A DNA stretch of 61,950 bases, counting the filler. It is 3 parts of 3 records of this genome, joined end to end, with 100 filler letters (N's around TTAATTAATTAA, not from the genome) between each part and the next. Parts side by side here need not be neighbours in the genome. Positions count along the whole stretch, not along the records: positions 18,115 to 49,938 come from DRR723986_1339; 2 more parts are not named here. The stretch is one strand, 5' to 3'. Positions 4,583 through 50,038 of this stretch are shown here, piece by piece. A program made the translations under genes and the position numbers. The notes under the pieces were generated by a model. The model did no database searches, was not told the origin of the DNA, and saw only the letters and a program-made list of their open reading frames with translations. Within the stretch, counting starts at the first letter, position 1. Each line of letters starts with the position of its first letter.

Positions 4583-4821
4583 GGGATTCCCCGGGATCGT
4601 CGCAATGGAAGGCGCTACATCTCTCCGAGAAGACGGGAGACGCTTTTTGCTTACCTTTAGAATGTTGTCATCAATTGCGACACTGCAATGGCAAAGCGAA
4701 AAACAGGTGGACGATTTTTCGAAATTGGCGAGCAAGAAGTTAAACCGACTTCGCTAATCTGCGAAGACCGACCGCAGTTTTCCTTTTCTTGCGACGGCCA
4801 GCAGCCTGCCCGGGTGCTGGA

Positions 4822-5643: not shown

Positions 5644-5844
5644 TCGCATTGAAGGGCTGTGCCGGAAAACGGCGGAACGGTCTGTCAGGATTCGCATGGG
5701 GGATGCGGTTTCCTGCCGAGGCTTATCGCAGGCCATGCACCTGCAACAAGCCTCTCTTTTCGAACTAATCTGTCTTGGCTCTTTATCCCGCGCGGTCTTT
5801 CGGACTAGGATCGTGCCGATTTTCCAACCTTCACAGGAAGTTCC

Positions 5845-6888
5845 ATGAATATCGATCTGCTTCGCCGCCTTTGCGAAACGCCGGGTGTACCGGGTCACGA
5901 ACACCGGGTCCGCGACCTGATTCAGGCGGAAATCAAGGGCTTGTTCGACGAGGTTACCGTCGACCCGATGGGTTCGCTGCTTTGCCGCCGCGACAGCCGC
6001 AAGGCTTCCAAGAAGGGAACCCCGAAGAAGGTCATGCTTCTGTGCCACATGGATGAGATCGGCTTCCTGGTCTCACATGTCACGGACAAGGGCTTCGTTC
6101 ACGTGCAGCCGGTTGGTGGCTTCGATGCCCGCAACCTGTTCTCCCGCCGCGTGCTGGTGTCTACCGATGAAGGCGACTTCAAGGGGGTGATGAACCCGGG
6201 CGGCAAGCCGATCCATATCTCTTCTCCGGAAGAGCGCAAGAAAGTGCCGGAGCCCAAGGAATTCGTCATCGACATGGGCCTTGGCGAAAAGACCAAGGAG
6301 ATCGTCAAGGTCGGCGACATGGTGACCATGGACGAGCCGCTGATCGAGATCGGCGACAAGGTCGTCTCCAAGGCGCTCGACAACCGCATCGCCTGCTGGC
6401 TCGGCATCGAGGCGATCAGAGGTCTGGGCAAGGCCAAGCATGATTGCGAAATTCATGTCGCCTTCACCTGCCAGGAAGAAGTCGGCCTGCGCGGCGCGCG
6501 CACCGCGTCCTTCGCCATTGCGCCGGACATCGGGCTTGGCATCGATACCACGCTTGCCTGCGACACGCCGGGCGTTCCCGAGCAGGACCGCACCACTGTG
6601 CAGGGCGAAGGCTTCGGTCTGCACGTAAAGGATTCCAGTTTCATCGCGGACCGCGATCTGGTGAAGGAAATCGAAGCCATTGCGGTTAAGGAAAAGATCC
6701 CGTTCCAGCGCACCATGCTGGCGGCTGGTGGCCAGGACGGCGCGGCTGCCCAGCAGGCGGCTGCCGGTGCCAAGGCAATCGGCATCGTTGTCGGCACCCG
6801 CTACATTCACACGGTCACTGAAATGATCGACAAGGGTGACCTTCAGGCGGCTCTGGACATCATCGTCGCCTACCTGAAAAAGGCGTAA
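5845..6888 (+). CDS. M42 family metallopeptidase (TET/Frv-like aminopeptidase)
   Basis: PGVPGHE, CHMDEIGF, SKALDNR, QEEVGLRGA, GIDTT, RYIHT. Confidence 0.92.
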   Translation: MNIDLLRRLCETPGVPGHEHRVRDLIQAEIKGLFDEVTVDPMGSLLCRRDSRKASKKGTPKKVMLLCHMDEIGFLVSHVTDKGFVHVQPVGGFDARNLFSRRVLVSTDEGDFKGVMNPGGKPIHISSPEERKKVPEPKEFVIDMGLGEKTKEIVKVGDMVTMDEPLIEIGDKVVSKALDNRIACWLGIEAIRGLGKAKHDCEIHVAFTCQEEVGLRGARTASFAIAPDIGLGIDTTLACDTPGVPEQDRTTVQGEGFGLHVKDSSFIADRDLVKEIEAIAVKEKIPFQRTMLAAGGQDGAAAQQAAAGAKAIGIVVGTRYIHTVTEMIDKGDLQAALDIIVAYLKKA

Positions 6889-6894
6889 GGCATG

Positions 6895-6923
6895 GAAAAG
6901 GGGAGCTTCGGCTCCCCTTTTTA
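6895..6923 (+). terminator. Rho-independent terminator
   Basis: AAAAGGGGAGC-TTCG-GCTCCCCTTTTT just after the M42 stop. Confidence 0.9.
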
Positions 6924-6956
6924 AGTCAGGTGTCAGATCTGGTTTTTTCCCACCTG

Positions 6957-6985
6957 CGTCATTGCCGGACTTGATCCGGCAGTCC
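6957..6985. repeat. Single arm of an alphaproteobacterial REP-like palindrome
   Basis: CGTCATTGCCGGA-CTTGA-TCCGGCAGTCC hairpin resembling the rhizobial GTCATTGCCGGGCTTGACCCGGCAATCC repeat; lies between convergent genes. Confidence 0.55.
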
Positions 6986-7032
6986 GGTCCAGCCCACGTC
7001 CCAACCGGAGTGTACGCGGAAGGGCTGCCTGC

Positions 7033-7647
7033 TCAGGCTACCAGGCCGAGGAGGTTCGAGACCTGGTCGCCGGTGCCTGCATAAAGCTCGCTGACGGCAG
7101 CGCTCTGGTAGCTGAAGGAGCCGTTGTCGAAGTTGCCTTCGATGGAAGAGGCGTTTGCGGAGCGGACGGACAGCCCGGTTTCGCTGTCGTAGGACACCCG
7201 CTCGAAGGATACGAACTGCGCGGAAACGGTTTCACCACCGATTTCGGCTTCAATAGTGGTCGTTGAAATCGTCGCGCTTTCATAGGCGACATTCGCCGAA
7301 GCGCCGCTTTCCTCTTCACCAAGAGCCACCTTCAGTTTGCCGGCGGTCTTCTGATAGTCCTCGACGGTCGCCAGCGCGCCGTCCTTTTCCTTGTCGTCGT
7401 CCTTGCCTTTGCCTTTTTCGACCGCATCCTGAAGGGCGGCGATCACGACCGCGTCTTCCTCGGCCTGTTTGCTGGCTGCTTCCAGAGCATTGACGGCGGG
7501 GGACTTGTCGTGGCCATTCCGCTGGCCGATCTCGTGGCCGTAGGCGTTGCCCTTGGGATCGTTCTTCTGGCCTTCAGCGCCGCCATTCGAAAAGGAAGCC
7601 GTAAAGAGGCTCGCGCTTTGCGTGGTGGTTTCGATGGAAATCTGCAT
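7033..7647 (-). CDS. Hypothetical acidic Ser/Thr/Ala-rich protein
   Basis: 204-aa ORF from MQISIETT with host-like codon usage; no family recognised. Confidence 0.7.
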   Translation of the reverse strand: MQISIETTTQSASLFTASFSNGGAEGQKNDPKGNAYGHEIGQRNGHDKSPAVNALEAASKQAEEDAVVIAALQDAVEKGKGKDDDKEKDGALATVEDYQKTAGKLKVALGEEESGASANVAYESATISTTTIEAEIGGETVSAQFVSFERVSYDSETGLSVRSANASSIEGNFDNGSFSYQSAAVSELYAGTGDQVSNLLGLVA

Positions 7648-7716
7648 GGCTTCGGATCCCGGCTTGTCCGGCCCTTTCTGGTCCGGCACAGTTGCAGAAA
7701 GCATCCTGCAAAACCG

Positions 7717-7732
7717 TTAACAGGCTATTAAC
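7717..7732. promoter_or_regulatory. CtrA box (TTAA-N7-TTAAC)
   Basis: TTAA CAGGCTA TTAAC about 70 nt upstream of the 7647 start, in a GC-rich alphaproteobacterial contig. Confidence 0.75.
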
Positions 7733-7748
7733 CAATGCAAGGCCGTCT

Positions 7749-8429
7749 TCAGACCGGCATTGCCGGGCCAAATGCCTTTTCCAGAAACCGCCCGCCCAGC
7801 ACCATGCCGCGCTCGTCAATCGAATGGCCGAGGCCGGCCAAAAGGTGCAGGCTTGAGGAAACCCCGGCATCGTCAAGCGCCTTTTGTGCTGCCTGGGCAT
7901 GATAGCGGGCAACGACATCGTCTTCCTCGCCATGGACGATCAGCACCGGGCTTTGCGTGTTGACCGGACCCAGCTGGCTGGCTCCCGGCAACAGTCCGGA
8001 ATAACCGATCAGGGCCGCTGGCGGAGACGGGCGGCGCAGGCCGCATTGAAAGGTCATCATGGCTCCCTGGCTGAAGCCGACCAATGCCAACGCGCTGCCG
8101 TCCAGCGAATGGCGGGCCAGTTCGTCGTCCAGAAACCTGTCGAGCACCGGATGGGCGGCCTGCGCGCCGAGGCGGTATTCATTGGGATCGCGCTCCTGGA
8201 GTGCAAACCATTGCCGCCCGCCAAGCGCTTCAAAGGGAAGGTGTTCAGGAGCGTTCGGCGCAACGAAAGCCGCATCGGGAAGCTGTCCCTGCCAGGCGCG
8301 CCCGAGGTCGATCAGGTCAAGGCCATCCGTGCCGTAGCCATGCAGGATCACAACCAGCTGACGGGCGGGTTTGCCGGAGGCCGGTGCAAGACGTGGACCG
8401 TCGAGAAGGGGAGGAAAGGTGCCTGTCAA
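7749..8429 (-). CDS. Phospholipase/carboxylesterase (Abhydrolase_2/YpfH-like)
   Basis: LHGYG, GFSQGAM, HGEEDDVV, GLGHSID; probable TTG start. Confidence 0.9.
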   Translation of the reverse strand: MTGTFPPLLDGPRLAPASGKPARQLVVILHGYGTDGLDLIDLGRAWQGQLPDAAFVAPNAPEHLPFEALGGRQWFALQERDPNEYRLGAQAAHPVLDRFLDDELARHSLDGSALALVGFSQGAMMTFQCGLRRPSPPAALIGYSGLLPGASQLGPVNTQSPVLIVHGEEDDVVARYHAQAAQKALDDAGVSSSLHLLAGLGHSIDERGMVLGGRFLEKAFGPAMPV

Positions 8430-8445
8430 TTTTGGGGAAACCTGA

Positions 8446-9726
8446 TTATTCGGCTGGTGTCTTCCGGTCTGCCGCATCGGAAGGTGACGGCAGTCTTTCC
8501 TGAAGACGCATGAAGGGAAGGGCGATCAGCATGGCGGCGAGGATCAGCACGCCTGCCAGGGCAAACGGCGCGCCGGGAAAGGAAATCGCCGCCTCAGGAC
8601 CTGAAAACGTGGCAAAGACCTGGGTCATCACCAGCGGGCTCACCACCATGGAAAGGCCGGCGGCACTGGCAATCAGGCCCTGCAATTCGCCCTGCGCATT
8701 GTCCGGGACACGGACCGACATTAGACCGGTGAAGGCAGGCGTCGCCATCGCACCAAGCGCCGCGAACGAGATCAGCAGATAGGCCATCCAGCCGGTATCG
8801 GCGACGGCGAGACCGGCAAAGGCCACGAGATTGGCGGCCAGTCCGATGAAGAGTGTCCGGCCGGGCCCGAGCTTTGGTTCCAGGACACGGATCAGGTATC
8901 CCTGAACGAAGGCAAATCCGACACCGACGGCCGCAAGTGACAGACCGATGTCTCCGGGGCTCCAGGCGAAGACCTCCTCCGCATAGTAGCTCCAGACGGA
9001 CGGGTAGACGTAATGGGCGATGTCGAACAGGAAGATGGCCAGAAGCAGCGTGCGCACCGCCGGATAGGCGGCGATCTGCTTGAAGGCCCCGAAAGGATTG
9101 GCCCGTTTCCAGTCAAAATCTCTTCTGTTTTCGTCCTTCAGCGTTTCCGGCAGCATGAAATAGCCGAAGAGGAAATTGACGAAGGAAAGGCCTGCGGCGG
9201 CATAAAAGGGCGCACGCGGTCCGTATTCGCCGAGATAACCGCCGATCATCGGCCCGAGTACGAAGCCGACACCAAATCCGGCTCCGACAAGGCCGAAGTT
9301 CTTCGCCCTGTCTTCCTTGGACGACACGTCGGCAATGAAGGCTGATGCGGCCGAGAAGGTTGCTCCGGCGACACCCGACAGGGTTCTGCCGATGAACAGC
9401 ACGGCCAGATGCCAGGAGAAGGCCATGATCAGGTAGTCGACAGCCATGGCGAACATGGACACCAGTAGCACCGGACGGCGGCCAAAGCGGTCGGACAGAT
9501 TGCCGAGCGTCGGACCGAAGGCGAACTGCATCAAGGCGTAGACGACGCTCAGTGCACCGCCCCAGCGGGCGGCTTCGCTCACAGGCAGCGAGGTGAGTTC
9601 GGTCAGGAGCGAGGGCATCACCGGCATCATCAGGCCGATGCCCATGGAATTGAGAACCAGCGTGACCAGGATGAACCCCAGCGCGCTGCGTTTGGAGATA
9701 CCGGACCGCAACTCTTTTCCCGCCAA
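8446..9726 (-). CDS. TCR/Tet family MFS efflux transporter
   Basis: About 12 hydrophobic segments, motif A GNLSDRFGRRPVLL, GRTLSGVAGA, motif C GFVLGPMIGG. Confidence 0.92.
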   Translation of the reverse strand: MAGKELRSGISKRSALGFILVTLVLNSMGIGLMMPVMPSLLTELTSLPVSEAARWGGALSVVYALMQFAFGPTLGNLSDRFGRRPVLLVSMFAMAVDYLIMAFSWHLAVLFIGRTLSGVAGATFSAASAFIADVSSKEDRAKNFGLVGAGFGVGFVLGPMIGGYLGEYGPRAPFYAAAGLSFVNFLFGYFMLPETLKDENRRDFDWKRANPFGAFKQIAAYPAVRTLLLAIFLFDIAHYVYPSVWSYYAEEVFAWSPGDIGLSLAAVGVGFAFVQGYLIRVLEPKLGPGRTLFIGLAANLVAFAGLAVADTGWMAYLLISFAALGAMATPAFTGLMSVRVPDNAQGELQGLIASAAGLSMVVSPLVMTQVFATFSGPEAAISFPGAPFALAGVLILAAMLIALPFMRLQERLPSPSDAADRKTPAE

Positions 9727-9759
9727 TCCCGTCAGCTGAAGGAGGGTGACCTTATCCGA

Positions 9760-11361
9760 TTACTCGGCGGCCACCAGCGCCGGCTGTTCCCAGTTGCCCT
9801 TTTCGATATCGGCAATCTGCTTGTCGATCTGGGCAACCACGAACCGGGAGAACGGCCCGAGGTGCACATAGAGCGCAAGCATCATCATGACCGGCTTGAT
9901 CGCCCTGAAATTGGTGAAGGCGGTCTTGATCAGGGTTTTCCAGAAGGGCCCGCGATAGGTGGTTTCCTTGAAGGTCATTGCCAGGATAAGACGGCCGAAC
10001 AGCTTGATATCGTGGAAGAACCCGGCGCCGAAGATCGAGCCGTTAGCGCCGCTCATGTCGAGCATGGAAGCCACCTTCTGAACGCGGCCGAAGTAGGCTT
10101 CCGGACCATAGACCCGGTCGATGACCTGCTTGAAGTCTTCCAGGATCTGCGCGCGCGGGCGCACTGTGGTGAAGTTGAGCCCGGCGGTGCACTGATCGCC
10201 ATGTTCCGTATCCGGATCATCGGTGGCGAAATCCGCATGCAGACGGCCTTCCTTGGCGAGCCGGCGCGTCAGCTGAGTGTTCGGCAGGGCATAGAGCAGA
10301 CCGGTCATCGCAACAGGGATCGCGGCTTCCTCGATCAGTGCCGAGATCTCGTCCGCCACCTTGTCGCTTTCCTCGTCGAAGCCGACAATGAAGCCGGCCA
10401 GCACGAAGATGCCGGCGTCGTAGATCTTGTGCACGCTCTTGGCGATGTCGCGGCGTGTGTTCTGCTTCTTGCGCGTCGCCACCAGGACTTCGGGGTCGGG
10501 GCTTTCGATGCCGATGAAGACCGAGAAATATCCGGCCTGCTGCATCATCTTCAACAAGGCTTCGTCGTCCGCCAGGTTGAGGGAAGCCTCGGTCGACATT
10601 TCGAACGGGTAGCTGCGTTCCTTCTGCCATTTCGCCAGTTCGGGCAGGAAGCCCTTCACGGCCTTCTTGTTGCCGATGAGGTTGTCATCGACGAAGTCGA
10701 CATGTCCCCGGTAGCCAAGTTCGTACAGCCGGTCGAGTTCGGCCAGCATCTGGTCGTTGGTCTTGGTGCGCGGCACGCGGCCATACAGCTCGATGATGTC
10801 GCAGAATTCGCAAGTAAAGGGGCAGCCGCGCGAATATTGCACGCCGATCTGGACATAATCGTCGAATCTCAGAAGGTCAAAGCGCGGTACGGGGCTGGAG
10901 GAAACGTCTGCCTTGAATTTCTCGGCCGAGAAACGGCCGTTGCGGACCCCTTCCTTCCAGGCGTCGACGAACGTGGTGAGGATGCCTTCGGCTTCCCCAA
11001 GGACCAGGAAGTCGGCCGCTTCATAAACTTCCGGAGAAGAGGTTGCGTCCGGACCGCCGACCACGACGGGAACATTCTTTTCCTGCGAACGGCGGATGAC
11101 GGCGAGGCAATCGGCCTGCTGGGGCAGCATGCCACCGGTCATCACCATGTCGGCCCAGGCGAGATCGTCGTTCGTCAGGGCGCCGGTGTTGCGGTCGATC
11201 AGCCGGACATTCCAGTTTTCCGGCAGCATTGCCGCAACTGTGATCAGGCCGAGAGGAGGAGCGGGATACTTGGCGCCGACCATTTCGCAGGTCGCACCAT
11301 AGTTCCAGAATGACCCGGCATTGAAGCGCGGATACACCAGCAGAACATTGCATTCCGACAT
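9760..11361 (-). CDS. B12-binding radical SAM protein (DUF4070-type)
   Basis: PPLGLITVAAMLP, VVGGP, RGCPFTCEFCD (CX3CX2C), FVDDN, FIGIES, GFIVGFD. Confidence 0.92.
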   Translation of the reverse strand: MSECNVLLVYPRFNAGSFWNYGATCEMVGAKYPAPPLGLITVAAMLPENWNVRLIDRNTGALTNDDLAWADMVMTGGMLPQQADCLAVIRRSQEKNVPVVVGGPDATSSPEVYEAADFLVLGEAEGILTTFVDAWKEGVRNGRFSAEKFKADVSSSPVPRFDLLRFDDYVQIGVQYSRGCPFTCEFCDIIELYGRVPRTKTNDQMLAELDRLYELGYRGHVDFVDDNLIGNKKAVKGFLPELAKWQKERSYPFEMSTEASLNLADDEALLKMMQQAGYFSVFIGIESPDPEVLVATRKKQNTRRDIAKSVHKIYDAGIFVLAGFIVGFDEESDKVADEISALIEEAAIPVAMTGLLYALPNTQLTRRLAKEGRLHADFATDDPDTEHGDQCTAGLNFTTVRPRAQILEDFKQVIDRVYGPEAYFGRVQKVASMLDMSGANGSIFGAGFFHDIKLFGRLILAMTFKETTYRGPFWKTLIKTAFTNFRAIKPVMMMLALYVHLGPFSRFVVAQIDKQIADIEKGNWEQPALVAAE

Positions 11362-11481
11362 TAACGGTCCCTCCAAACGGACACTTGTTCCTAACGGCGA
11401 CACCGTAACAACTTTACGCCCCGGCACAACCGCTTTGAATGTCCCTGCACGAATTCACGTGCTGTCCGAGCGGACAGACTG

Positions 11482-12795
11482 TCACGTCTGGCTGGCGCCT
11501 GGCTTGCGGATGTGAAAAACGAGCCCCTGCACATCCTTGCCGAGTTCCTTGCGCAGAATATCCCGTTTCTCCCGTGCATAGAGAAGGCCCGCGGCCTCTG
11601 CACAGCGCTTTAGATATTCGGGCCGGTGGGCGTAGCGCCCCGTAGCATCCACGCGGTAGTCCGGCCCGTCCGACGTATCGAGATGCTCGACGCTCGCGAC
11701 GAGCATGCCACCCGGGGCAAGGGCTCCTGCAAGCGCCCGCATGAAAGGCTCCAGATCGCCGAGATAACACAGCGTGTCGACACAGACTGCCAGATCGAAT
11801 TGGGCCGGCAGGTCGGAGGACAGAAATCCAACGAGCTCACCTTCGACCAGGAAGTCGTAGACCTTCAGCGCAGCGGCCTTGCGCAGCATGCCCGGTGACA
11901 GGTCGATGCCGGTGAGCCGGGCACAGTGGTCGCGGATCAGTGGTCCGCAAAGGCCGGTCCCGCAGCCGAGATCGACCACATGGGCAAACGGCAAGTCGCG
12001 CTCCCTGGCCAGCTCCGCGACTTCCTCGGCAACAAGCTTCGGCGCCTGGTAGCCGAGCCCGTTCAGGACGTCGTCAAAGCTTTCCGAAAAGCTGTCGAAA
12101 TGATCCCGGACATAGTCCGCAGGTGCAAGCGACAGGTCTTCTCCGCGGATCGCGGCAAACTGATAGCGGATGACCGGGTCGTCCGGGTAGGTTGCGACAA
12201 GCATCTCCATATGTCGTGTGGCGACTTCGGCCCGCCCAAGCGCGCACAATACGCGCGGATGCCAGCCCTTGTCGCTCCAGACGTCTGGCGGGAACTGCAG
12301 ACACCGTTCGAAGGCGTCTGCCGCTTCCTCTCTTTTGCCGGCAAGCATCAGCGATATGCCGAAGTTGTGCCAGCCGCTGTGATTGTTCGGGTCGAGGCGC
12401 ACGACTTCTCGCAGCATGGGCAGAAGCTCGTCGTTGTTGCTGGCTTCCTGCAGCATCATCGAGATGTTCTTCCAGGCTTCCTCGTGGCGGACTTCAATTT
12501 CTACTGCGCGCAAATAGGCCTTCAAGGCTTCGTCCTTGTCGCCTGAAAGCTTCAGGATGTTGCCGAGGTTGTTCCAGGCGGAGAAATTGCCCGGGTTCCT
12601 TTCCAGGGAGGCATGGATAAGCGCAACCGCATTGTCAGCCTTGCCGGCATCGAAATGGAGCAGCCCCAGGAAATGCAAGCCGTCCGCATGGTCGGGATCT
12701 TCCGATAGCACATCCTTGTAGGCGCTGAGGGCGGCTTCCAGATTGCCGCTGCGGTGGGCGGAGATGCCCTGTTGTAATCTCTCGTCAATTTGCAT
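11482..12795 (-). CDS. TPR-repeat protein fused to a class I SAM methyltransferase
   Basis: N-terminal TPRs (AWNNLGNIL), YVRDHFDSFSESFD, DLGCGTGLCG, GIDLSPGML, GRYAH. Confidence 0.9.
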   Translation of the reverse strand: MQIDERLQQGISAHRSGNLEAALSAYKDVLSEDPDHADGLHFLGLLHFDAGKADNAVALIHASLERNPGNFSAWNNLGNILKLSGDKDEALKAYLRAVEIEVRHEEAWKNISMMLQEASNNDELLPMLREVVRLDPNNHSGWHNFGISLMLAGKREEAADAFERCLQFPPDVWSDKGWHPRVLCALGRAEVATRHMEMLVATYPDDPVIRYQFAAIRGEDLSLAPADYVRDHFDSFSESFDDVLNGLGYQAPKLVAEEVAELARERDLPFAHVVDLGCGTGLCGPLIRDHCARLTGIDLSPGMLRKAAALKVYDFLVEGELVGFLSSDLPAQFDLAVCVDTLCYLGDLEPFMRALAGALAPGGMLVASVEHLDTSDGPDYRVDATGRYAHRPEYLKRCAEAAGLLYAREKRDILRKELGKDVQGLVFHIRKPGASQT

Positions 12796-12811
12796 CTGAA
12801 AAAAATCCAAT

Positions 12812-12836
12812 AAAAAAGGGCGGTCGAACCGCCCTT
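12812..12836 (-). terminator. Rho-independent terminator of the cold-shock gene
   Basis: Minus strand AAGGGCGG-TTCGA-CCGCCCTTTTTT. Confidence 0.8.
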
Positions 12837-12863
12837 GTACCCGGTAATGACCTGTAAGTGACC

Positions 12864-13064
12864 TTACAGGACTTTCAGGTCTTCAGCCACCATTTGACCG
12901 CGGCGCCACTCCAGGTCGAATGCCACAAGCTGGCCTTCCTTCAGAGTGTCAATACCGGACCGGCGCAGGGCCGAGATGTCGACAAGGATGTCCTCGCCGT
13001 CCTGCGGTTCGATCGTGCCGATACCTCGGCGCTGATCAAACCATTTCACGTTTCCATGTAGCAT
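12864..13064 (-). CDS. Cold-shock domain protein with degenerate RNP motifs
   Basis: MLHGNVKWFDQRRGIGTIEPQDGEDILVDISALRRSGIDTLKEGQLVAFD; 66 aa. Confidence 0.85.
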   Translation of the reverse strand: MLHGNVKWFDQRRGIGTIEPQDGEDILVDISALRRSGIDTLKEGQLVAFDLEWRRGQMVAEDLKVL

Positions 13065-13333
13065 GGAGTCTTCTTTCCAATTCTTGGCATCTTGGCATAC
13101 GACGGCTTCCATAGCTGCCTTTTTCAACGCCTTGATGACAGTGTTGATGATAATACTAAAGTACTTTTCAGACCCTGCTCGGAACTGGACATCGACGTGC
13201 GCAGTCTTTTCGCGACTGCCTCACTTCAAGAAGCCGTTCCATTTGGCGGAGGTCTGGTTGCCCGGTAAAAACTCCCGGGCTTTTCCATAGTGTCTATTAG
13301 TATGGTAATGAAATTGTTAATTTCAAGACCTGC

Positions 13334-18014: not shown

Positions 18015-18114
18015 NNNNNNNNNNNNNNNNNNNNNNNNNNNNNNNNNNNNNNNNNNNNTTAATTAATTAANNNNNNNNNNNNNNNNNNNNNNNNNNNNNN
18101 NNNNNNNNNNNNNN
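18015..18114. other. Artificial contig-joining spacer
   Basis: N44-TTAATTAATTAA-N44 (stops in all six frames); flanking genes are truncated. Confidence 0.98.
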
Positions 18115-20253: not shown

Positions 20254-21552
20254 ATGCCCAACAGAACACTGACCTACGCACTGACCCTGCTGGTGCTGCT
20301 CTGCGCCAGGCCAAGCCTGGCCAGCAGCGGCGCGACGATAGCGGCCATCTATATCGATGACCAACCCCAGCAGAGCGTCACCGGCGTAACGGTGTCGGTG
20401 GGCAAGGAACGTATGAGTGGCCCGCTGAACCTGCAGCAGCCCATACCCTCCGGAGCACGCATCCAGACACCCCCGCGGGTCACCCTGGACCTGCTCACCC
20501 AGAACCAGAACAGCCTGCGGGTGGCGCCGAATTCCGATGTCCGCATTGGGGTAAGCGCCCAGGGCGAGAACCACTCGGTCAGCAGCGGCAGCCTGTTCGC
20601 CTGGGTGAAGACAAAGCTGGACTTCTTCAACATCAGCGACAGTAACGGCCGCTTCCAGGGGGCCGCAAAATCAACCGCCTATGGCGCTACTGTCGGTCGC
20701 GGCGGCATCAGTTTCACTACCAGCGAAGGCGTCATCCGGGTCAACCAGCAGGTGCCGGTCAGCGTCGCCGGTACCGCGGTCAAGACCAATGGGCGCAGCC
20801 CGCTGACAGTGACCCGCTCTTCCAGCCTGGCGGCTGACCAGGGCTCGCAATCCTTCGACTTCGAGGCCTTCCAGTCACAACCGCAGGACTTTGCCAGCTT
20901 CGATGACGCCACCGACAGCCTGCAACAGTGGATTGCCCAGGCAGAGGCCGCCCACGACTGGGAGGCGGCAGTCGACCTGTATTCCACCCTGGGAGGGATG
21001 TATCTCGACGAGGGCGAGGCAGACGAGGCGGTGAGCTACCTCAACCGGGCCCTGGAGATCAATTACACCAATGGTTCCGGCCTGCTTGACCCGAGTTTCT
21101 CGGAAGATCACACCTTGCTGGGCTATGCCTTCCTGGAGCTGGAGTGGCCCATCCTGGCGCTGCTCAATTTCCGCCGGGCAGAAGAAATCCTGCTGGAAAT
21201 CGATCCCTATAACCCTTTGCTTGCCGATTCATGGATCGACCAGGCCGAAGCACTGCAGCAACTGGGCGACGAGCAGAGCTCGGTTGAACTCGCGCTCCAG
21301 GCAGCGGAACTGCTGGGTTACCAGTTAGACGAGGACATGGCACTGCTGGACGAGTGGATGGAGTCGGATGATCTGGAAATGCAGTACCTGGCCATCGACT
21401 ATGCCTGGGAAGTCAGCGATCGCCTGATGAGTATGGGCTGGGCGCTCCAGTTTGCCCAGCAGCCCGCGGAAGCGGATGAGTTATTCGCTACCGCCGGGGA
21501 ACTGGAGGATTTCATCAGCGACTGGGAAGCAGAAGTCGATGCCTATCGCTAA
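20254..21552 (+). CDS. Exported protein with a FecR-like beta domain and a very acidic TPR-like C-terminus
   Basis: Signal peptide; FecR-pattern segment GARIQT...SLRVAPNSDVRI...AAKSTAYGATV...TTSEGVIRV; TPR-like helices (LYSTLGGMYLDEGEADEAVSYLNRALEI). Confidence 0.7.
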   Translation: MPNRTLTYALTLLVLLCARPSLASSGATIAAIYIDDQPQQSVTGVTVSVGKERMSGPLNLQQPIPSGARIQTPPRVTLDLLTQNQNSLRVAPNSDVRIGVSAQGENHSVSSGSLFAWVKTKLDFFNISDSNGRFQGAAKSTAYGATVGRGGISFTTSEGVIRVNQQVPVSVAGTAVKTNGRSPLTVTRSSSLAADQGSQSFDFEAFQSQPQDFASFDDATDSLQQWIAQAEAAHDWEAAVDLYSTLGGMYLDEGEADEAVSYLNRALEINYTNGSGLLDPSFSEDHTLLGYAFLELEWPILALLNFRRAEEILLEIDPYNPLLADSWIDQAEALQQLGDEQSSVELALQAAELLGYQLDEDMALLDEWMESDDLEMQYLAIDYAWEVSDRLMSMGWALQFAQQPAEADELFATAGELEDFISDWEAEVDAYR

Positions 21553-23173
21553 ACGACTGGCGGCGTATACCGCCATCTTCCTGGCCCTGCTGCTGCTCGT
21601 CGGGAGCCTGCTGGGCGCCGCCTGGCGCCCGCTTGATTACATCGTGTTCAAGGCGCTGGCGATCGGTGACTCCCCGCAGCTTGAAGACGACATCCGGATC
21701 ATTGACCTGCCCTACTACAAGGCCGGCTCCGGCTCCTTCGACCTGCCTGACTTCCGCGCCCGCACCGTTGACCTGCTGCAGCAGATCGGCGAGCTGAGCG
21801 CCAACTATGAGCGGCCACGCGCGGTAATTCTTGACCTCTACTACGGGAGCGACCAACGCCTTGTGCCGGAGCTATTGGCCGCCATCGCGGGGCTGCAGGA
21901 GAAAAAAATCCGGGTCTACGGCGTGTTCGACACCATGGGCCTGGCGGGCACCTCCTTTGAACAGCGCCGGGCGGATCACGCCATGGCAATCTACGAGCGC
22001 CTCGACGGCGGTCTGCTGCATACCCGGTTCGACCAGAAGCTGGGAGCCATCACCTACCGTTCCCATCTCGAGATACACTACGACCAGGAAGATATGCAGG
22101 CCAGGGTTATGGCGCTGCCTCTGCGCGTTGCCATGGATCTGAACCAGATCGAGGAACCTGACCCAGTGCGGGAGTATGTGCTGCCCCACGGTGACCAGGC
22201 CGATGTAACGAGCAAGACACTCCAGTTCACTCACCCGCAGGGCAGTACCAGCGGCGGCCGTTTCCTGCAGCAGGGGACCGAGCTGGCCGCGCCTGACATC
22301 CACGACAAGTTGCTGATCGTCGCCAGCTTCGAGGGCGACCGCGTGGTCCAGGGTCGACCCGGCCCCGAGCACCTTGCCTGGGCGCTGGATGACCAGCGCA
22401 ACGGCAACCGCAATGCGCGGATACCGATGAACCAGCCCCTGATTATCGTCGGCGTGGTGCTGTTTGTGGCCGCGTGGACCGCGCTGGTTTATGCCGTGCT
22501 GTTCAAATACGCCAAGTCCCTGCAGACCCGGCCTGGCGCACTGGCGTTACTGGCCCTGCTCGCCGGACTTGCTGCCATCGGTGGACTATCGGCCCTGGTG
22601 CTGATGATTGGCCAGGTGCTGCCAGTCGGCCTGGCGCTGTTCGCGGCGGCGCTGGCCGCAGCGGTGGCCTGGCACTTCGCCAATCGGTTCCTGGTGACCG
22701 GCGTGGCGGAAGGTTCCGGCAAGTACGACGTGTTTATCAGTTATTCACGCAAAGACGGCGACTGGGTCTACAACAGCCTGTACAAACCGCTGAGCGAGCT
22801 GCGCAAAGCCGATGGCTCGGCTCTGTCGATCTTCTTCGATCGCAACGAGATCAGCCTGGGGGAGGCTTTTACCTCGAAATATATGTGGGCGATCGTCGAT
22901 AGCCAGCATTTCATACCGGTATTCTCGGAAAACTATTACGGCACGCGTAGCCACGGCCGCAATGAAATGGACCTGGCCTACAAGCGCCATGTCGAAAAGA
23001 GTATCCGAATACTTCCAGTGGCTTTCTCCGATGACAGCGTGCCGGAGATTTACAATGGATTGAATTACCTGAACGTGACCACCGAGACCGAATTTTTCGC
23101 CGCGCTGGCAGCCGAACTGACCGCGCCGGAAGCGTCAGCCAGGGACGATTCGGATTCCGCAGGTAGCGCCTGA
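21539..23173 (+). CDS. CHASE2-like sensor - 3TM - TIR domain membrane receptor
   Basis: N-terminal TM, PLDY..F, IRIIDL, PRAVILDLYY, KLLIVAS, PGPEHLAWAL (CHASE2 pattern); three TMs; then YDVFISYSRKDGDWV...IFFDRNEISLGE...AIVDSQHFIPVFSENY...RNEMDLA...ILPV (TIR); overlaps the upstream gene by 14 nt. Confidence 0.85.
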   Translation: MPIAKRLAAYTAIFLALLLLVGSLLGAAWRPLDYIVFKALAIGDSPQLEDDIRIIDLPYYKAGSGSFDLPDFRARTVDLLQQIGELSANYERPRAVILDLYYGSDQRLVPELLAAIAGLQEKKIRVYGVFDTMGLAGTSFEQRRADHAMAIYERLDGGLLHTRFDQKLGAITYRSHLEIHYDQEDMQARVMALPLRVAMDLNQIEEPDPVREYVLPHGDQADVTSKTLQFTHPQGSTSGGRFLQQGTELAAPDIHDKLLIVASFEGDRVVQGRPGPEHLAWALDDQRNGNRNARIPMNQPLIIVGVVLFVAAWTALVYAVLFKYAKSLQTRPGALALLALLAGLAAIGGLSALVLMIGQVLPVGLALFAAALAAAVAWHFANRFLVTGVAEGSGKYDVFISYSRKDGDWVYNSLYKPLSELRKADGSALSIFFDRNEISLGEAFTSKYMWAIVDSQHFIPVFSENYYGTRSHGRNEMDLAYKRHVEKSIRILPVAFSDDSVPEIYNGLNYLNVTTETEFFAALAAELTAPEASARDDSDSAGSA

Positions 23174-23207
23174 CCTCGCGGCCAGGCGTAGCGGCGTCCT
23201 GCCTGGC

Positions 23208-23369
23208 TCAGGTCTGGGTACCGGGCGGTCCCGGGCGCTGGGTGCCGGGGGGTCCCGGACGCTGAGTCCCGGGCGGTCCCGGGCGTTGGGTGCCGGGGGG
23301 TCCCGGACGCTGGGTCCCGGGCGGTCCCGGACGTTCTGTACCTTCCTTTTCCTTGTCCTGGTCAGACAT
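23208..23369 (-). CDS. 53-aa tandem-repeat peptide MSDQDKEKEGTE(RPGPPGTQ)5T
   Basis: AGGAG 6 nt before the ATG at 23369; repeat units differ only at third codon positions. Confidence 0.8.
   Translation of the reverse strand: MSDQDKEKEGTERPGPPGTQRPGPPGTQRPGPPGTQRPGPPGTQRPGPPGTQT
23214..23333 (-). repeat. Five tandem 24-nt units encoding RPGPPGTQ
   Basis: Consensus CGY CCG GGA CCS CCC GGB ACY CAR; units alternate between two sub-types (48-nt higher-order period). Confidence 0.95.
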
Positions 23370-23422
23370 GCACATCTCCTTGCGTTTACCTCTGCCTAAA
23401 CCTAGTCGCTGGATGGGGATTG

Positions 23423-25420
23423 TCAATCTGGCACCGTGGCCAGGATCGCATCAAAGCGCGCGGGATCCAGCGCCCGGAGCTTGACCAGGTCAGGATCCTC
23501 GAGCAGGAGCTCCGCCGAGAAGCCCAGCGACCTTGCCTGTGCCAGCGCCACATAGGCCGACTCCGGGTTGGCCAGGGCCCAGTGCACCAGGGCGGCAAAG
23601 TAGTGCGAAGTCGGCGGCGAACTGCCGGTAGCGAGCATGCGCTGGGTATAGGCCAGCGCCTCCGACTCGTGCCCCGAGTACGCGTGGTACAAGCCGAGCA
23701 GGCCCAGCGTTTCCCAGTCGTTGGGGTTACGTGACAGGCGTTGTTCGGCGAGGGAGATGGCTTGGGCATAGTTGGCCAGTTCCTGCTCCCTGTCACCCAG
23801 CGCACGATAGCTCTCGGCGATCCGCCCCCAGACCCGATGATCATCGGCAATGTTGCCGGCGGCGGCCTCATGCATCGCCGCGGCCCGGGCATAGTTGCCC
23901 TGGTAGTAATACAGCAGCCCGAGGTTGGTGTAGCTGATACCGAGGGAGCCGATGCTGTCGGCGCCTGCCTGCTCTATCACCTGCATCCACACCTGCTCCG
24001 CCTCGGCTTCCCGGCCGAGCATGTACAGGGCTGAGCCCTGGCCGATGAGTGCGCTGAGCAGGTCAGGTACCTTCACCAGGACCTCGTCATAGGCAAGCCG
24101 GGCTTTGTCATACTGCGCGGCAGCTATATAGAAATTCGCCAGCACAAGCCGGGTTTCCCAGTTGCTTTCGTCAAGGGCGACCGCACGCTGGAGATAGTCC
24201 TCGGCCTCCTCGTAGCGCCCGGTATCACCATAGGTCTTGCCGATTTCCTGCAAGGTCCGCGGGCGATCAGGGTAGTCGCGGTCGGCGGCGAACAGGTAAT
24301 CCAGTGACTTGGCGTATTCTCCCGCCTCGCGGTAGAGCACGCCCAGGGCGATCTGCACATCCCAGCCCGGTATGCCTGACTCGGACTTCGCCAGCGCCCG
24401 GAGGCAGGCCCGTTCCGCCAGGCTAAATGCCTCAGCTTCCCGGCTGTGGCTGTACTGCGCCAGTTGCGCGTCGCAGATGCCGGCAAAGGCGTCGGCGTAG
24501 TCCGGGTCGATCTCAACCGCTTCGGTAAAAAATGCGACCGCCTCATCAAGAATCGCGTCATTCCACGGCAGGCGCAGCTGGGCGCGGCCCTTCAGGTAGG
24601 CGTTGTAGGCGTCAAAGTTGGTGGTCGATGGACCAAGGGGCAGCGCACCCTCCTCCATGATCATCGGACGAATCGCACGCACGACTGCTCCGGCGATCTG
24701 GTCCTGCAGCGCGAATATGTCCTCCAGGGTGCCGTCATAGGTCTCCGACCAGAGGTGGTAGCCGTTGCTGGTATCGATCAACTGGGCGGTGACCCGCACG
24801 GCATCGCCGGTTTTGCGGACACTGCCCTCCAGCAGGGTCGCTACGCCCAGCGAGCGCCCGATAGCCATCACATCCTCGGTGGTGTCGCGAAAATGAAACG
24901 ACGAGGTTCTGGCGGCGACACGCAGGCCTTCAACCTGGGCCAGCACATTGAGCAGTTCTTCGGAAATACCATCACTGAAATAGGCATTGTCCGGGTCGCT
25001 GCTCATATTGGCGAAGGGCAGCACCGCAATCGACTGCGCCTGCGGATCGTCGACCGCCCAGGGAATCGTGCCGCGCTGCAGGTATAAACGTTCGTAATAG
25101 AGGTAACCAACCATCAGTACCAGGGTGCAGATCAGCACGAACTGCAAGGCATGGGCAGTGGATATCCTCGGCGGCGCGGCTTGTGCTTCCGGTGAGGGAA
25201 TAAGCCCCTCAGACGAGAGGTCAAAAACCCAGGACAGGAGCATGGCCACCGGGAAACCGCCAGCCATAATGTAGAGCATCAGGCGCATGGACCATTCAGG
25301 CAGCCCCATGATAGGCAGCATGATGTCGGCGACCTGAAGCACGGCCCAGGCCGCCGCCGCATAGGCGAAGGCAACCCTGAATACCTTACGGCGCTTCAGT
25401 TCGGCGATAAACGCCTGCAT
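23423..25420 (-). CDS. Membrane-anchored TolB-like(N)/TPR protein
   Basis: ELKRRKVFRVAFAY plus 3 TMs, SIAVLPFANMSSDPDNAYFSDGISEELLN, LEGSVRK, HLWSETYD, then multiple TPRs. Confidence 0.88.
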   Translation of the reverse strand: MQAFIAELKRRKVFRVAFAYAAAAWAVLQVADIMLPIMGLPEWSMRLMLYIMAGGFPVAMLLSWVFDLSSEGLIPSPEAQAAPPRISTAHALQFVLICTLVLMVGYLYYERLYLQRGTIPWAVDDPQAQSIAVLPFANMSSDPDNAYFSDGISEELLNVLAQVEGLRVAARTSSFHFRDTTEDVMAIGRSLGVATLLEGSVRKTGDAVRVTAQLIDTSNGYHLWSETYDGTLEDIFALQDQIAGAVVRAIRPMIMEEGALPLGPSTTNFDAYNAYLKGRAQLRLPWNDAILDEAVAFFTEAVEIDPDYADAFAGICDAQLAQYSHSREAEAFSLAERACLRALAKSESGIPGWDVQIALGVLYREAGEYAKSLDYLFAADRDYPDRPRTLQEIGKTYGDTGRYEEAEDYLQRAVALDESNWETRLVLANFYIAAAQYDKARLAYDEVLVKVPDLLSALIGQGSALYMLGREAEAEQVWMQVIEQAGADSIGSLGISYTNLGLLYYYQGNYARAAAMHEAAAGNIADDHRVWGRIAESYRALGDREQELANYAQAISLAEQRLSRNPNDWETLGLLGLYHAYSGHESEALAYTQRMLATGSSPPTSHYFAALVHWALANPESAYVALAQARSLGFSAELLLEDPDLVKLRALDPARFDAILATVPD

Positions 25421-25520
25421 AGAGATTGGCTCTTGTGCTGAATCCGGCCTGACTATAGCACCTCCCCGATGCAGCCTGAACTGAAATGCGCCTGCGGCAG
25501 GCTTGTTCCATGCGTTGCAA

Positions 25521-25548
25521 TTGCTATTCGGAACGGCTGCTCTATGAT
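25521..25548 (+). promoter_or_regulatory. Putative sigma70 promoter of the caspase operon
   Basis: TTGCTA-N16-TATGAT about 40 nt upstream of ATG 25589. Confidence 0.4.
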
Positions 25549-25588
25549 TAGGGAACACTATTAGCTGAACGGCATTGATACCCGCCCG

Positions 25589-26548
25589 ATGAATAAGCGA
25601 GCACTACTGGTCGGCATCCAGGACTACGATTACGCACCGCAGCTTTTCTGCTGCGCCGAAGACGCCCGGGCAATGGCCGATGTCCTCGGACGCCACGCTG
25701 ACGGCGCGCTCAATTACGAATGCCTGGCCCTGACCAGTGATCAGGGACGAATCACCGAGGCCGAACTGCGCGGCAAGGTACGCGAGCTGTTTGCCGACGT
25801 GGCCGGCGGCGAGGTGATCTTCTACTTTTCGGGGCACGGGGTCATAACCGATACCGGCGGCTACCTGGTAACCCAGGACGGCCAGGTAAATGACCAGGGT
25901 TACCCGATGTCCGAACTGCTGCAGATCGCAAACCGCAGCGGCGTTGGCTCGGTCCTGCTGATTCTCGACTGCTGCCATAGCGGCAGTATCGGTGGTAGCG
26001 GTGCAGACCCTTACCAGAACCAGGTGCTGCTCAGCGAGGGCGTCACCATCCTGGCCGCCTCATCACCGCAACAGGAATCCCGCGAGGGTCTGGAGCACAG
26101 CCTGTTCACTGAACTGGTGCTGGACGCGCTCAATGGTGGCGCCGCTGATATCCGGGGCAATGTGTCCGCGGCCTCTTTGTACGGCTATGTAGAGCAGTCT
26201 CTGGGGGCCTGGCAGCAGCGCCCCATGTACAAGTCCAACGCGCGCAGGCTGAACCCGATCAGACACTGCGAACCGGCGGTACCTGACCAGTTGCTGCGCC
26301 AGCTGCCGACACTGTTCACCTCGCCGCAACTGGCCATTGCGCTCGACCCGGGCTTTGAACACACCGATCCCAGTGCCGAGGCGGAAAAGGTCGCAATGTT
26401 CGACCAGTTCAAGGCCCTGCGCAACGCACGCCTGCTGGAGACGGCCGGCGGCGAAGACCTGTACTACGCTGCCATGCGCGGCGGCTCAGTCAAACTCACA
26501 CCGCTGGGACGATTTTACTGGCAGCTGGTAAAGAACCGGCGGATATAG
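25589..26548 (+). CDS. Caspase-like cysteine protease (peptidase C14) with a C-terminal accessory domain
   Basis: RALLVGI, FYFSGHG (His), ILDCCHSG (Cys), TILAAS, SLFT..LDALNGGAAD; C-tail LDPGFE...YYAAMRGGSVKLTPLGRFYWQLVKNRRI. Confidence 0.93.
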   Translation: MNKRALLVGIQDYDYAPQLFCCAEDARAMADVLGRHADGALNYECLALTSDQGRITEAELRGKVRELFADVAGGEVIFYFSGHGVITDTGGYLVTQDGQVNDQGYPMSELLQIANRSGVGSVLLILDCCHSGSIGGSGADPYQNQVLLSEGVTILAASSPQQESREGLEHSLFTELVLDALNGGAADIRGNVSAASLYGYVEQSLGAWQQRPMYKSNARRLNPIRHCEPAVPDQLLRQLPTLFTSPQLAIALDPGFEHTDPSAEAEKVAMFDQFKALRNARLLETAGGEDLYYAAMRGGSVKLTPLGRFYWQLVKNRRI

Positions 26549-26557
26549 GAGCGTTAC

Positions 26558-27076
26558 ATGTCGGACTCCGATACTTCCAGGGCCGTGCGGCCAGACGAAT
26601 ACGGGGACAGTTACCGGGCGGACTTCCTTACCATGTACCATGAGTACGTGGCGTCTGCCGACCGGATTTCAGAGCGCAGGACCGCCGCCAATACTTTCTT
26701 TGTCAGCGCCAACGCGGCGCTTCTCGGCCTCAACGGCTACTTCCTGCAGAAAGACGGGGAGCCTTCCCTGCTGATCAACGATGCCCTGTGGGTACCCGCA
26801 GTAGCGGCCATCCTCATGTGCTGGATCTGGCGCGGCCTGATTTCATCCTACAAAAGCCTTAACGGCGCCAAGTTCGGGGTCATCCTGGCCATGGAGCGCC
26901 AGCTTCCCGCGGCACCGTATACGGACGAGTGGGCAAACCTGCAGGACAGCCAGCGCAGCAGCAAACACATTCCGCTCAGTGATTCGGAGAAGTACGTGCC
27001 CATGGTCTTCATGATCGTCAACGTGGGTATCTTCACCCTGAGCTTTACCAATTTCATTCTTGGCAAGGTCAGCTAG
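26558..27076 (+). CDS. RipA-like small oligomeric membrane protein (2 core TMs plus a hydrophobic C-tail)
   Basis: Y..YV.SADRISERR..AN.FFVS.N, W...I.SY..LN.AKF.VI..ME.QLP..PY..EW pattern, recalled from Francisella RipA-like proteins; GGAG RBS. Confidence 0.7.
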   Translation: MSDSDTSRAVRPDEYGDSYRADFLTMYHEYVASADRISERRTAANTFFVSANAALLGLNGYFLQKDGEPSLLINDALWVPAVAAILMCWIWRGLISSYKSLNGAKFGVILAMERQLPAAPYTDEWANLQDSQRSSKHIPLSDSEKYVPMVFMIVNVGIFTLSFTNFILGKVS

Positions 27077-27085
27077 GAGATCAGT

Positions 27086-27931
27086 ATGCCCAGGGGCTTA
27101 TCCCTACATATCGGAGTCAACGTCTGCGACCCGGATCACTACGGCGGCTGGTCCGGCCCGCTGGAATGTTGCGAAGCGGATGCGGACGCCATTCACGGCC
27201 TGGCCGTGGAAGCCGGATTCGAACCGACGGTGCTGAAGACGGCACAGGCCACGCGTACTGCCGTGGCCGATGCCATCAGCTCGGCGGCTGCCACCTGTGA
27301 GGCCGGCGACTTCTTGCTGGTGAGCTACGCGGGGCACGGTGGCCAGATTGCCGACGTCGATGGCGATGAGAGCGACCAGATCGACGAGACCTGGTGCCTG
27401 TACGACGGCCAGTTACTCGACGACGAACTGAACGTCCTATGGGCAAAATTCCATGCGGGCGTGCGTATCCTGGTGCTGTCAGACAGTTGTCATAGCGGCT
27501 CGGTAACCAAGAGCGTCGCCAGCCGGCGCGGGGCGATGGGCGCTCGCAACGCCCTGTTCTCCGGGACAGCGCCACAGGCGGCGGGAAAGGCCCGCTTCAT
27601 GCCCCGACAGGCCGCGGCAGCGACCCAGCGCAAGAACCGTGATTTTTACGCCGGGCTGCAGACCTCCCTCCCCAACCCGCGACCGGCGATCAAGGCCAGC
27701 GTCAGGCTGCTCTCGGGCTGCCAGGATAACCAGCTCTCCACCGAACTGGACGGCAACGGGGTCTTTACCCGCAATGTGCTGCGGGTATGGGACAAGGGTA
27801 ACTTCCAGGGCGACTATCGGGAATTTCACCGCGCTGTTATCACCAATATGCACGAAAGCCAGCAACCCAATCACCTGGTGATTGGCGGTGAAAATTCCGA
27901 GTTCGACGCTCAGCGACCGTTTTCCATCTGA
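27086..27931 (+). CDS. Metacaspase-like peptidase C14
   Basis: SYAGHGGQ, DGDESDQIDETWCLYD..LLDDEL, LSDSCHSGS, LLSGCQDNQLS, GVFT, QQPN. Confidence 0.93.
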   Translation: MPRGLSLHIGVNVCDPDHYGGWSGPLECCEADADAIHGLAVEAGFEPTVLKTAQATRTAVADAISSAAATCEAGDFLLVSYAGHGGQIADVDGDESDQIDETWCLYDGQLLDDELNVLWAKFHAGVRILVLSDSCHSGSVTKSVASRRGAMGARNALFSGTAPQAAGKARFMPRQAAAATQRKNRDFYAGLQTSLPNPRPAIKASVRLLSGCQDNQLSTELDGNGVFTRNVLRVWDKGNFQGDYREFHRAVITNMHESQQPNHLVIGGENSEFDAQRPFSI

Positions 27932-49938: not shown

Positions 49939-50038
49939 NNNNNNNNNNNNNNNNNNNNNNNNNNNNNNNNNNNNNNNNNNNNTTAATTAATTAANNNNNN
50001 NNNNNNNNNNNNNNNNNNNNNNNNNNNNNNNNNNNNNN
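49939..50038. other. Artificial contig-joining spacer
   Basis: N44-TTAATTAATTAA-N44. Confidence 0.98.

Follow-up and report, generated by a model that had tools for sequence, protein, structure and literature searches.

The window analysed here, a 62-kb stretch (61,950 nt) in which three parts of a genome are joined through filler letters, contains at positions 20254–27931 an island of seven genes which raises the question of whether bacteria can connect sensing at the cell envelope with a TIR-caspase death pathway. The genes, designated g1–g7 according to their positions (Table 1), encode a FecR-like/TPR protein and a transmembrane TIR protein (g1 and g2), a repeat peptide and a TolB-like/TPR membrane protein on the opposite strand (g3 and g4), and a caspase, a small membrane protein and a second caspase (g5–g7). 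The source of the island is a marine bacterium, and the seven DNA sequencing data sets in which a match was found are marine or estuary metagenomes; none of the data sets listed is from RNA. A preliminary description of the locus, made from the sequence alone, had proposed an outside-in pathway leading from a periplasmic sensor through a TIR signal to caspases and a membrane effector, and had recognised no named system in it. The latter statement turned out to be incorrect, as the core of the island appears to be a variant of type IV Thoeris. On balance, we consider it probable that the small cytoplasmic TIR sensor of this system has been replaced here by a transmembrane receptor. The comparative data thus suggest that bacteria can wire envelope sensing to a TIR-caspase death pathway.

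The First Caspase and Its Family

Type IV Thoeris, described in a preprint by Rousset et al., combines the short TIR protein ThsB with the caspase-like protease ThsE. The TIR product N7-cADPR switches on the caspase, the cleavage by which is Arg-specific and promiscuous (Rousset et al.), and defence is abolished by the E79Q substitution in the TIR protein or by the C129A substitution in the caspase (Cys129 of PsCaspase) (Rousset et al.). The published detection rule requires a TIR_2/ThsB gene with no more than one gene between the TIR and the caspase, and the published frequency is 573 systems in approximately 46,000 genomes.

According to the Pfam analysis, g5 is a member of the Peptidase_C14 family (E-value 4e-14). 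A total of 1686 relatives were found at an E-value of 0.001 or less; of the 200 metagenome loci confirmed, the best 80 were studied. His83 and Cys129 of g5 are invariant in 78 of the 78 aligned family sequences, and its C-terminal domain (approximately residues 220–319) can be aligned across the family. The hallmarks of the C-terminal part (W208, Q210, R211, K215, R225, E257, G307, and Y310) are present in all 11 sequences of the clade to which g5 belongs (the trio clade, see below) and in at least 65 of the 67 other sequences. In addition, g5 shares motifs over its full length with EcCaspase and PsCaspase, the sequences of which were taken from the paper supplement and compared by eye only. 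A sequence search of the PDB with g5 returned only metacaspases and MALT1.

The relatives of g5 with an identity of 41–55% are located in TIR-caspase operons, the usual gene order outside the trio clade being short TIR, caspase, and a gene of ~160 aa. A TIR was detected near the caspase in 40 of the 80 loci using a local TIR profile. The presence of TIR could be judged in the 30 non-trio loci with flanks of no less than 600 nt on the upstream side and 2000 nt on the downstream side of the caspase; 21 of them contained a TIR gene, five contained a gene for a long TPR-S1 protein, and four contained neither. Two of the 13 members of the TPR-S1 protein cluster were flagged as TIR. The TIRs adjoining g5 relatives are themselves heterogeneous and split into several mutually distinct clusters. 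By these sequence comparisons, g5 belongs to the ThsE family of type IV Thoeris effectors and is not an orphan protease.

As for the ~160-aa gene located after the caspase, its possible identity with a diverged 8xMP gene (the family of g6) was considered and rejected. The gene encodes a YpsA-type SLOG protein (nine of the 22 members match the YpsA SLOG profile of Pfam, best E-value 1.7e-6) and, in 40 of the 69 loci without the trio, directly follows the caspase (L097, positions 10964–11449, and 39 more). Possibly it corresponds to the "fifth gene" left unexplained in the Pycsar-Thoeris IV operons of PMC13069673. A different arrangement was observed in L152 (5103–9810), where a 691-aa protein with approximately ten hydrophobic segments and a TIR is encoded upstream of a ThsE-type caspase and is itself preceded by a Ser/Thr kinase fused to a PQQ beta-propeller.

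Receptor-Type TIR Proteins

The gene trio of the window, consisting of a caspase, an 8xMP protein and a second caspase, was also found in the metagenome loci L089–L094, L148, and L156; L157 ends inside the 8xMP gene. The trio loci and the window form a single clade (FastTree support 1.0) nested in the type IV caspase family. Both the short TIR gene and the ~160-aa SLOG gene are absent from all trio loci. Four trio loci (the window, L089, L090, and L156/L157) have flanks sufficient for the question of which TIR accompanies the trio, and a membrane receptor with a cytoplasmic TIR was found at three of them. In the window, g2, which encodes the TIR receptor with a putative CHASE2 domain, is located 2.4 kb upstream of the trio. 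In L089, a protein with a TIR, a transmembrane segment and two PASTA domains is encoded directly upstream, its gene ending 30 nt before the caspase, and in L090 a protein composed of a TIR, a transmembrane segment and an ectodomain is encoded directly downstream, starting 42 nt past the second caspase.

A further association was identified in L040, a Gemmatimonadales metagenome-assembled genome in which a g2 homologue (40% identity) is directly followed by a ThsE-type caspase. The latter is placed on a distant branch together with the caspase of L168 (support 0.974); judging from the tree, the association of a receptor TIR with a ThsE-type caspase arose independently in L040. Since type IV Thoeris is rare at the frequency given above, two separate adjacencies are unlikely to have occurred by chance, which is an argument from frequency and not a computed test. 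The link from TIR to caspase proposed in the preliminary description is therefore supported by the ThsE type of g5, by the TIR genes adjoining its relatives, by g2 being the sole TIR in the 62-kb window, and by the gene order in L089, L090, and L040. The co-occurrence of CHASE2-TIR with this caspase family, which had been suggested as a check, was found again in L040, and TIR receptors of other kinds adjoin the trio in L089 and L090. Further trios were also sought using g7: matches were obtained in two of 132 family genomes, four of 401 order genomes, and four viral contigs, and none of these matches was adjoined by g5, 8xMP or TIR.

The Pfam analysis identified a TIR_2 domain in g2 (E-value 3e-14). 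The CHASE2 profile (PF05226) gives no match in g2 itself at an E-value of 0.1 or less; it matches 18 of the 35 full-length members of the g2 family (best E-value 7.6e-7), and the relative in L040 has a CHASE2 match. Hydrophobic segments of g2 are located at residues 7–25, 302–320, and 337–355, and a further one, found by reading of the sequence and unscored, at approximately residues 362–383. This layout, with an N-terminal transmembrane segment, a segment of ~270 residues, a transmembrane bundle and the TIR, fits a CHASE2 receptor. The probable start of the gene (21539) precedes the end of g1, so that the two genes share 14 nt. Glu442 and Glu476 of g2 are invariant in the 35 family sequences; Glu476, located within the motif ...RNEMDLA, is presumably the catalytic Glu, an assignment made via the WCxxE-type TIR motif.

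The g1 protein has a signal-peptide-like N-terminus and TPR repeats matched by Pfam. Its N-domain is all-beta in the AlphaFold2 model (25 homologues, pLDDT 79), and residues 65–208 of the model align to the C-terminal signalling domain of PupR (6ovm_R; Z 9.1, root-mean-square deviation (rmsd) 2.8 Å, 120 residues). Foldseek with the whole g1 model returned TPR proteins only, and the FecR-type match emerged solely in a wider structure search. Pfam FecR matches one of the 25 members of the g1 family (E-value 3.7e-8), and the Atlas feature search, used as a lead only, assigned 26 of 30 matches to FecR clusters (scores 0.91–0.92). Judged by its modelled fold, which is that of FecR/PupR, the N-domain of g1 is FecR-like. 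A g1 homologue is located directly upstream of a g2 homologue in 30 of 32 genome loci according to clustering and additionally in L012 according to tblastn. The outside-in direction of sensing proposed earlier agrees with the predicted CHASE2 and PASTA ectodomains of the receptors and with g1 as a putative periplasmic FecR/TPR partner. In addition, approximately 20 small ORFs (open reading frames) of 60–96 aa, all of one family, surround the FecR/TPR and CHASE2-TIR pair of Algoriphagus antarcticus (L039, approximately 4700–13,200).

Other Genes of the Island and Its Surroundings

All seven ORFs of the island were found at the positions given in the preliminary description, and the ORF calls bear out a seven-gene set between gcvP and an unrelated operon. 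The suggested Pfam search of the seven proteins gave matches to TPR, TIR_2, Peptidase_C14, and 8xMP. PADLOC named no system among the same proteins and returned only the candidate TIR model PDC-S66 and a generic caspase model. Most of the domain names proposed earlier hold, with the exception of the name RipA-like for g6, which was rejected since no library returned it.

Table 1. Positions of the island features in the window and the basis of their assignment.
Feature	Position	Strand	Basis
g1, secreted FecR-like beta domain and TPR	20254..21552	+	Pfam TPR; FecR from profile and fold matches
g2, transmembrane segment, putative CHASE2, transmembrane region and cytoplasmic TIR	21539..23173	+	TIR_2, family CHASE2, transmembrane segments
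g3, 53-aa peptide, five perfect RPGPPGTQ units, one Arg per unit	23208..23369	-	Synonymous-only unit differences
g4, membrane protein, TolB-N-like domain and TPR	23423..25420	-	Pfam TPR; Foldseek; homologues in L090 and L092
Intergenic region g4/g5, divergent	25421..25588		One sigma-70-like site, 25521–25548 (+); site count not above shuffles
g5, ThsE-type (type IV Thoeris) caspase-like protease with family C-terminal domain	25589..26548	+	Peptidase_C14, conserved residues, operons of relatives
g6, 8xMP family (PF24838), probable membrane effector	26558..27076	+	E-value 6e-32; all trio loci and L168
g7, second caspase without C-terminal sensor domain	27086..27931	+	Peptidase_C14, E-value 4.5e-18

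The membrane protein g6 matches the 8xMP profile with 110.7 bits (Pfam cut-off 30; E-value 6.3e-32) over profile positions 3–134 of 136. The family is sporadic, with 21 of 401 genomes of a class sample above the cut-off. A survey covered 23 8xMP loci, in which 55 of 105 called ORFs were scanned, 8xMP ORFs and mostly short or overlapping ORFs being left out. A short ThsB-type TIR gene directly adjoins 8xMP in five of the 23 loci (L181, L182, L184, L196, and L208). The gene order in L168 (6452–9169) is short TIR, 8xMP, short TIR, and ThsE-type caspase, and no second caspase is present; here 8xMP is linked to a type IV Thoeris caspase for a second time and independently of the trio. A sequence search of the PDB with 8xMP found nothing, and nothing relevant to 8xMP or PF24838 was found in the literature searched. 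Homology of 8xMP with DUF2270 (PF10028) was considered and rejected (hhalign probability 0.35%, E-value 0.17; no PF10028 match in g6).

It had been supposed that the caspases activate the membrane protein in the manner of gasdermins. No gasdermin family was among the Pfam or PADLOC matches of the seven proteins, and the supposition finds no support in the data, since 8xMP pairs with short TIR genes in the five loci mentioned. Because of these two-gene pairs, g6 looks like a second, parallel TIR-dependent effector rather than a gasdermin-like caspase substrate; a protease-dependent step for g6 is possible.

As for the second caspase, His84 and Cys135 of g7 are invariant in the seven aligned trio loci, and its variable linker is bounded by the invariant Arg170 and Arg174. 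Judging from the gene order and the Arg-flanked linker only, a protease cascade from g5 to g7 is plausible. Caspase domains related to g7 occur elsewhere, some of them fused to GDSL lipase and M15 peptidase and others in vWA-MoxR contexts. Large proteins with a GDSL lipase and a g7-like caspase domain are encoded in L176 (11373–13208), L178 (5388–8825), and L179 (6601–9147), and two of the three also contain the Peptidase_M15 cell-wall hydrolase domain.

The g3 peptide reads M..(RPGPPGTQ)x5. Pairwise comparison of its units revealed 28 synonymous and 0 non-synonymous codon differences, indicating that g3 is a real coding gene. Repeat peptides are also encoded directly upstream of the caspase in L090, L092, and L094; the L090 peptide is MASEHKE(RPGPPDD)x8, and those of L092 and of the cut start of L094 consist of (RGKPDQDIS) units. 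The synonymous and non-synonymous differences between units are 135 and 0 in L090 and 20 and 0 in L092. One Arg is present in each unit of the repeat peptides, and the pattern of codon differences indicates that these peptides are under selection. The peptide and g4 accompany the trio in three loci, and neither is present in the trio loci L089 and L156.

The ORF of g4 is open to position 25558, and its start at 25420 was placed where its homologues begin to align. The protein consists of three hydrophobic segments, a TolB-N-like domain, and TPR repeats. According to Foldseek, the model of residues 165–350 (pLDDT 83.6) is similar to TolB (E-value 1.9e-6, rmsd 3.0, 133 columns); the domain also matches GNA1162, PelC, LpoB, and CadC (E-values from 1e-6 to 2e-6). 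The C-terminal part of g4 may be either periplasmic, as in its structural neighbours, or cytoplasmic. In addition, g4 resembles TIGR04510, "putative peptide modification system cyclase" (E-value 7e-15, below the cut-off). In L090 and L092, a g4 homologue precedes the trio in divergent orientation. The TolB-like/TPR module was also observed fused to TIR, in L065 (1828–3798) with a single transmembrane segment between them, which is a receptor-like layout, and in L081 (9995–11698) with no transmembrane segment. These fusions suggest that the module is tied to TIR signalling in general.

Both flanks of the island are metabolic. The upstream flank is gcvP, and the downstream flank is an operon encoding SnoaL, a racemase, a TonB receptor, a sigma-54 activator, an isochorismatase, and a hydantoinase. 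Runs of N are located at positions 18015–18114 and 49939–50038 of the window; the first of them breaks gcvP, which is readable as one ORF across its C-terminal 683 codons only. In a DNA search of 31 related genomes, a strong match was obtained for the gcvP part only, and the island itself was matched just briefly, in the TolB-like domain of g4. This segment (24691–24835) matches many sites in related genomes with 68–78% DNA identity, which indicates a multi-copy domain family. Since the gcvP protein is only ~60% identical to that of the genomes assigned to the same genus, insertion of the island could not be shown by synteny. A B12-binding radical SAM protein (DUF4070) adjoining a TPR-methyltransferase fusion is encoded at positions 9760–12810 on the minus strand and is apparently unrelated to the island.

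Proposed Mechanism, Alternatives, and Known Systems

The domain identities, the assignment of g5 and g6 to their families, the conserved catalytic residues and the recurrent gene associations are observed, and on them the following scheme of the type IV Thoeris variant can be built, in which we infer each biochemical step, the nature of the cue, and the supply of a signal from g2 to g5. A cue in the periplasm or envelope would be perceived jointly by the putative CHASE2 ectodomain of g2 and by g1, its secreted partner, and g4 may be an extra sensor or regulator. The cytoplasmic TIR domains of g2 would gather and convert NAD+ to a signal of the cyclic-ADP-ribose type, and binding of this signal by the C-terminal domain of g5 would switch on Arg-specific proteolysis. 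Damage to the membrane may be caused by the 8xMP protein g6, as a second effector dependent on the TIR, and g7 may serve as a downstream protease, probably activated through a cut in its linker. The g3 peptide could be a multi-site substrate or a TPR ligand and thereby tune or report protease activity.

Several observations weigh against such a scheme. In 30 of the 32 genomes with the g1–g2 pair, most of them Bacteroidota, a g5-type caspase is lacking; L040 and L012 stand apart, the latter with a weak, unrelated 753-aa caspase-domain ORF ~6 kb off. No further conserved neighbour of the pair was found across the 32 genome loci. At the trio of L156/L157, no TIR was detected over ~6 kb of upstream and 2.7 kb of downstream sequence. 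A different subfamily is represented by the g2 TIR, which phmmer (E-value < 10) did not match to any of the TIRs adjoining g5 relatives. The type IV detection rule fails at the island, as g3 and g4, located on the other strand, separate g2 from g5, and no mobile or known defence genes are among the flank genes. Moreover, the judgeable trio loci are only four and all metagenomic, which is a small sample, and the functional steps are derived comparatively from a handful of metagenome loci. Since g1–g2 mostly lack a g5-type caspase and the L156/L157 trio lacks a TIR, it is unproven that all seven genes form one system. The same data, along with the different orientation and probably different promoters of the three gene groups, would be expected if the island were composed of two or three independent neighbouring modules, namely, an NAD+-depleting g1–g2 pair with the TIR as its own effector, a caspase/8xMP/caspase cassette set off by some other trigger or by a TIR whose gene lies elsewhere, and a TPR protein with a peptide. 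This explanation seems to us rather unlikely, though worth serious attention. In L040, CHASE2-TIR directly precedes a ThsE-type caspase of a distant branch, and distinct membrane TIR receptors directly adjoin the trio in L089 and L090. In addition, g5 retains the C-terminal domain common to the TIR-coupled members of its family, and there is no second TIR in the window.

The remaining explanations accept a connection between the genes and change its meaning. The caspases might cut g3 at each Arg, with the released peptides sensed by the periplasmic TPR, FecR, and CHASE2 proteins, so that the TIR output would serve ordinary signalling or developmental cell death and not immunity. Such peptide processing agrees with the selection on identical units with one Arg each in three loci, with the Arg specificity of the validated protease of the family, with the TPR of g1 and g4 being a peptide-binding fold (TPR-peptide complexes are among the structural neighbours of g1), and with the similarity of g4 to TIGR04510 below the cut-off. 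We nevertheless consider it improbable, because g3 has neither a signal peptide nor an adjoining exporter gene, the trios of L089 and L156 lack the peptide and g4, the context of the family is anti-phage, and two of the three types of repeat have Pro directly after Arg. Pro in this position often blocks protease cleavage. It is very improbable that g2 and g5 are coupled but respond to an intracellular trigger, the ectodomains serving for membrane anchoring or for localisation at the site of phage entry. The Thoeris TIRs described in the accessible parts of the literature searched do sense infection inside the cell, but three different sensor ectodomains recur (CHASE2, PASTA, and one of unnamed type) and the secreted partner g1 is conserved; for these reasons, anchoring alone is hard to accept. 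The least probable of the possibilities considered, and a highly speculative one, is that g3 is a poly-precursor cut by the Arg-specific caspase, from which identical peptides of 7–9 residues are released when the membrane effector opens the cell and are read by the TPR/FecR/CHASE2 receptors of sister cells. If this were true, the TIR-caspase response would spread from cell to cell as a bacterial cytokine loop via a Toll-like receptor.

Returning to the type IV Thoeris variant with a transmembrane receptor, its similarity to the described system lies in the His/Cys dyad and C-terminal domain of g5 and in the candidate catalytic Glu476 of the g2 TIR. In contrast to that system, where a short TIR is encoded at most one gene from the caspase, the sole TIR of the island belongs to a transmembrane receptor of the putative CHASE2 type, from which g5 is separated by two genes. 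8xMP and a second caspase occupy the place of the SLOG-type third gene, and the island further includes a TPR membrane protein and a repeat peptide. According to a preprint, type V Thoeris is composed of a TIR and ThsF/DUF2270, a homo-oligomeric membrane effector with three transmembrane segments. The 8xMP protein is similarly small, has approximately three transmembrane segments, and forms two-gene pairs with short TIR genes, but it shows no DUF2270 homology and in the island is located between two caspases.

Other systems share single elements with the island. In the EACC2-caspase-CHASE2 system of Kaur et al. (2021), a single protein contains both the caspase and CHASE2, and no TIR is present. 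A CHASE2 ectodomain is thus tied to a caspase-based conflict system in both cases, whereas the island has the putative CHASE2 domain and the TIR in one protein and the caspase, which is of the signal-dependent ThsE type, in another. The two-gene EACC1-caspase system differs both in the caspase, as g5 (103.3 bits) and g7 (31.4 bits) do not reach the NF047832 cut-off of 140 bits, and in the gene order, since it has an EACC1 gene with a single transmembrane segment directly upstream, whereas the gene upstream of g5 is g4, on the other strand. In type III-B CRISPR, SAVED-CHAT and PCaspase are two proteases acting in series, the first being activated by a nucleotide signal. The series of two proteases proposed for g5 and g7 would be similar, but with another sensor domain and another upstream signal generator.

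The features of the variant (TIR receptors, 8xMP with a second caspase, and g4 with the peptide) are undescribed in the accessible parts of the literature searched, although the supplement of a 2025 TIR survey may list some of them. CHASE2-TIR or PASTA-TIR receptors of this kind are likewise not described in these parts, in which Thoeris systems have soluble TIR proteins detecting phage inside the cell; for either domain combination a single paper of the Aravind group was returned, and it does not deal with such receptors. No precedent was found in the literature searched for a repeat peptide that is under selection and has one protease site in every unit. The island is a testable case of one TIR driving effectors of two kinds, a protease and a membrane protein, as well as of a possible two-caspase cascade and of a selected repeat peptide with a protease site in each unit.

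In animal Toll-like receptors, a sensor domain outside the cell is connected across the membrane with a TIR in the cytoplasm. The predicted architecture of g2 is alike, and the ectodomains are unrelated; the comparison is meant as an analogy, with no homology of the whole receptors claimed. Bacterial TIRs are NAD+-consuming enzymes rather than adaptor scaffolds. Should the receptor TIRs of this clade continue to supply a signal to a Thoeris caspase, the envelope could be a starting point of bacterial TIR immunity, in a layout like that of the animal Toll-like receptors.

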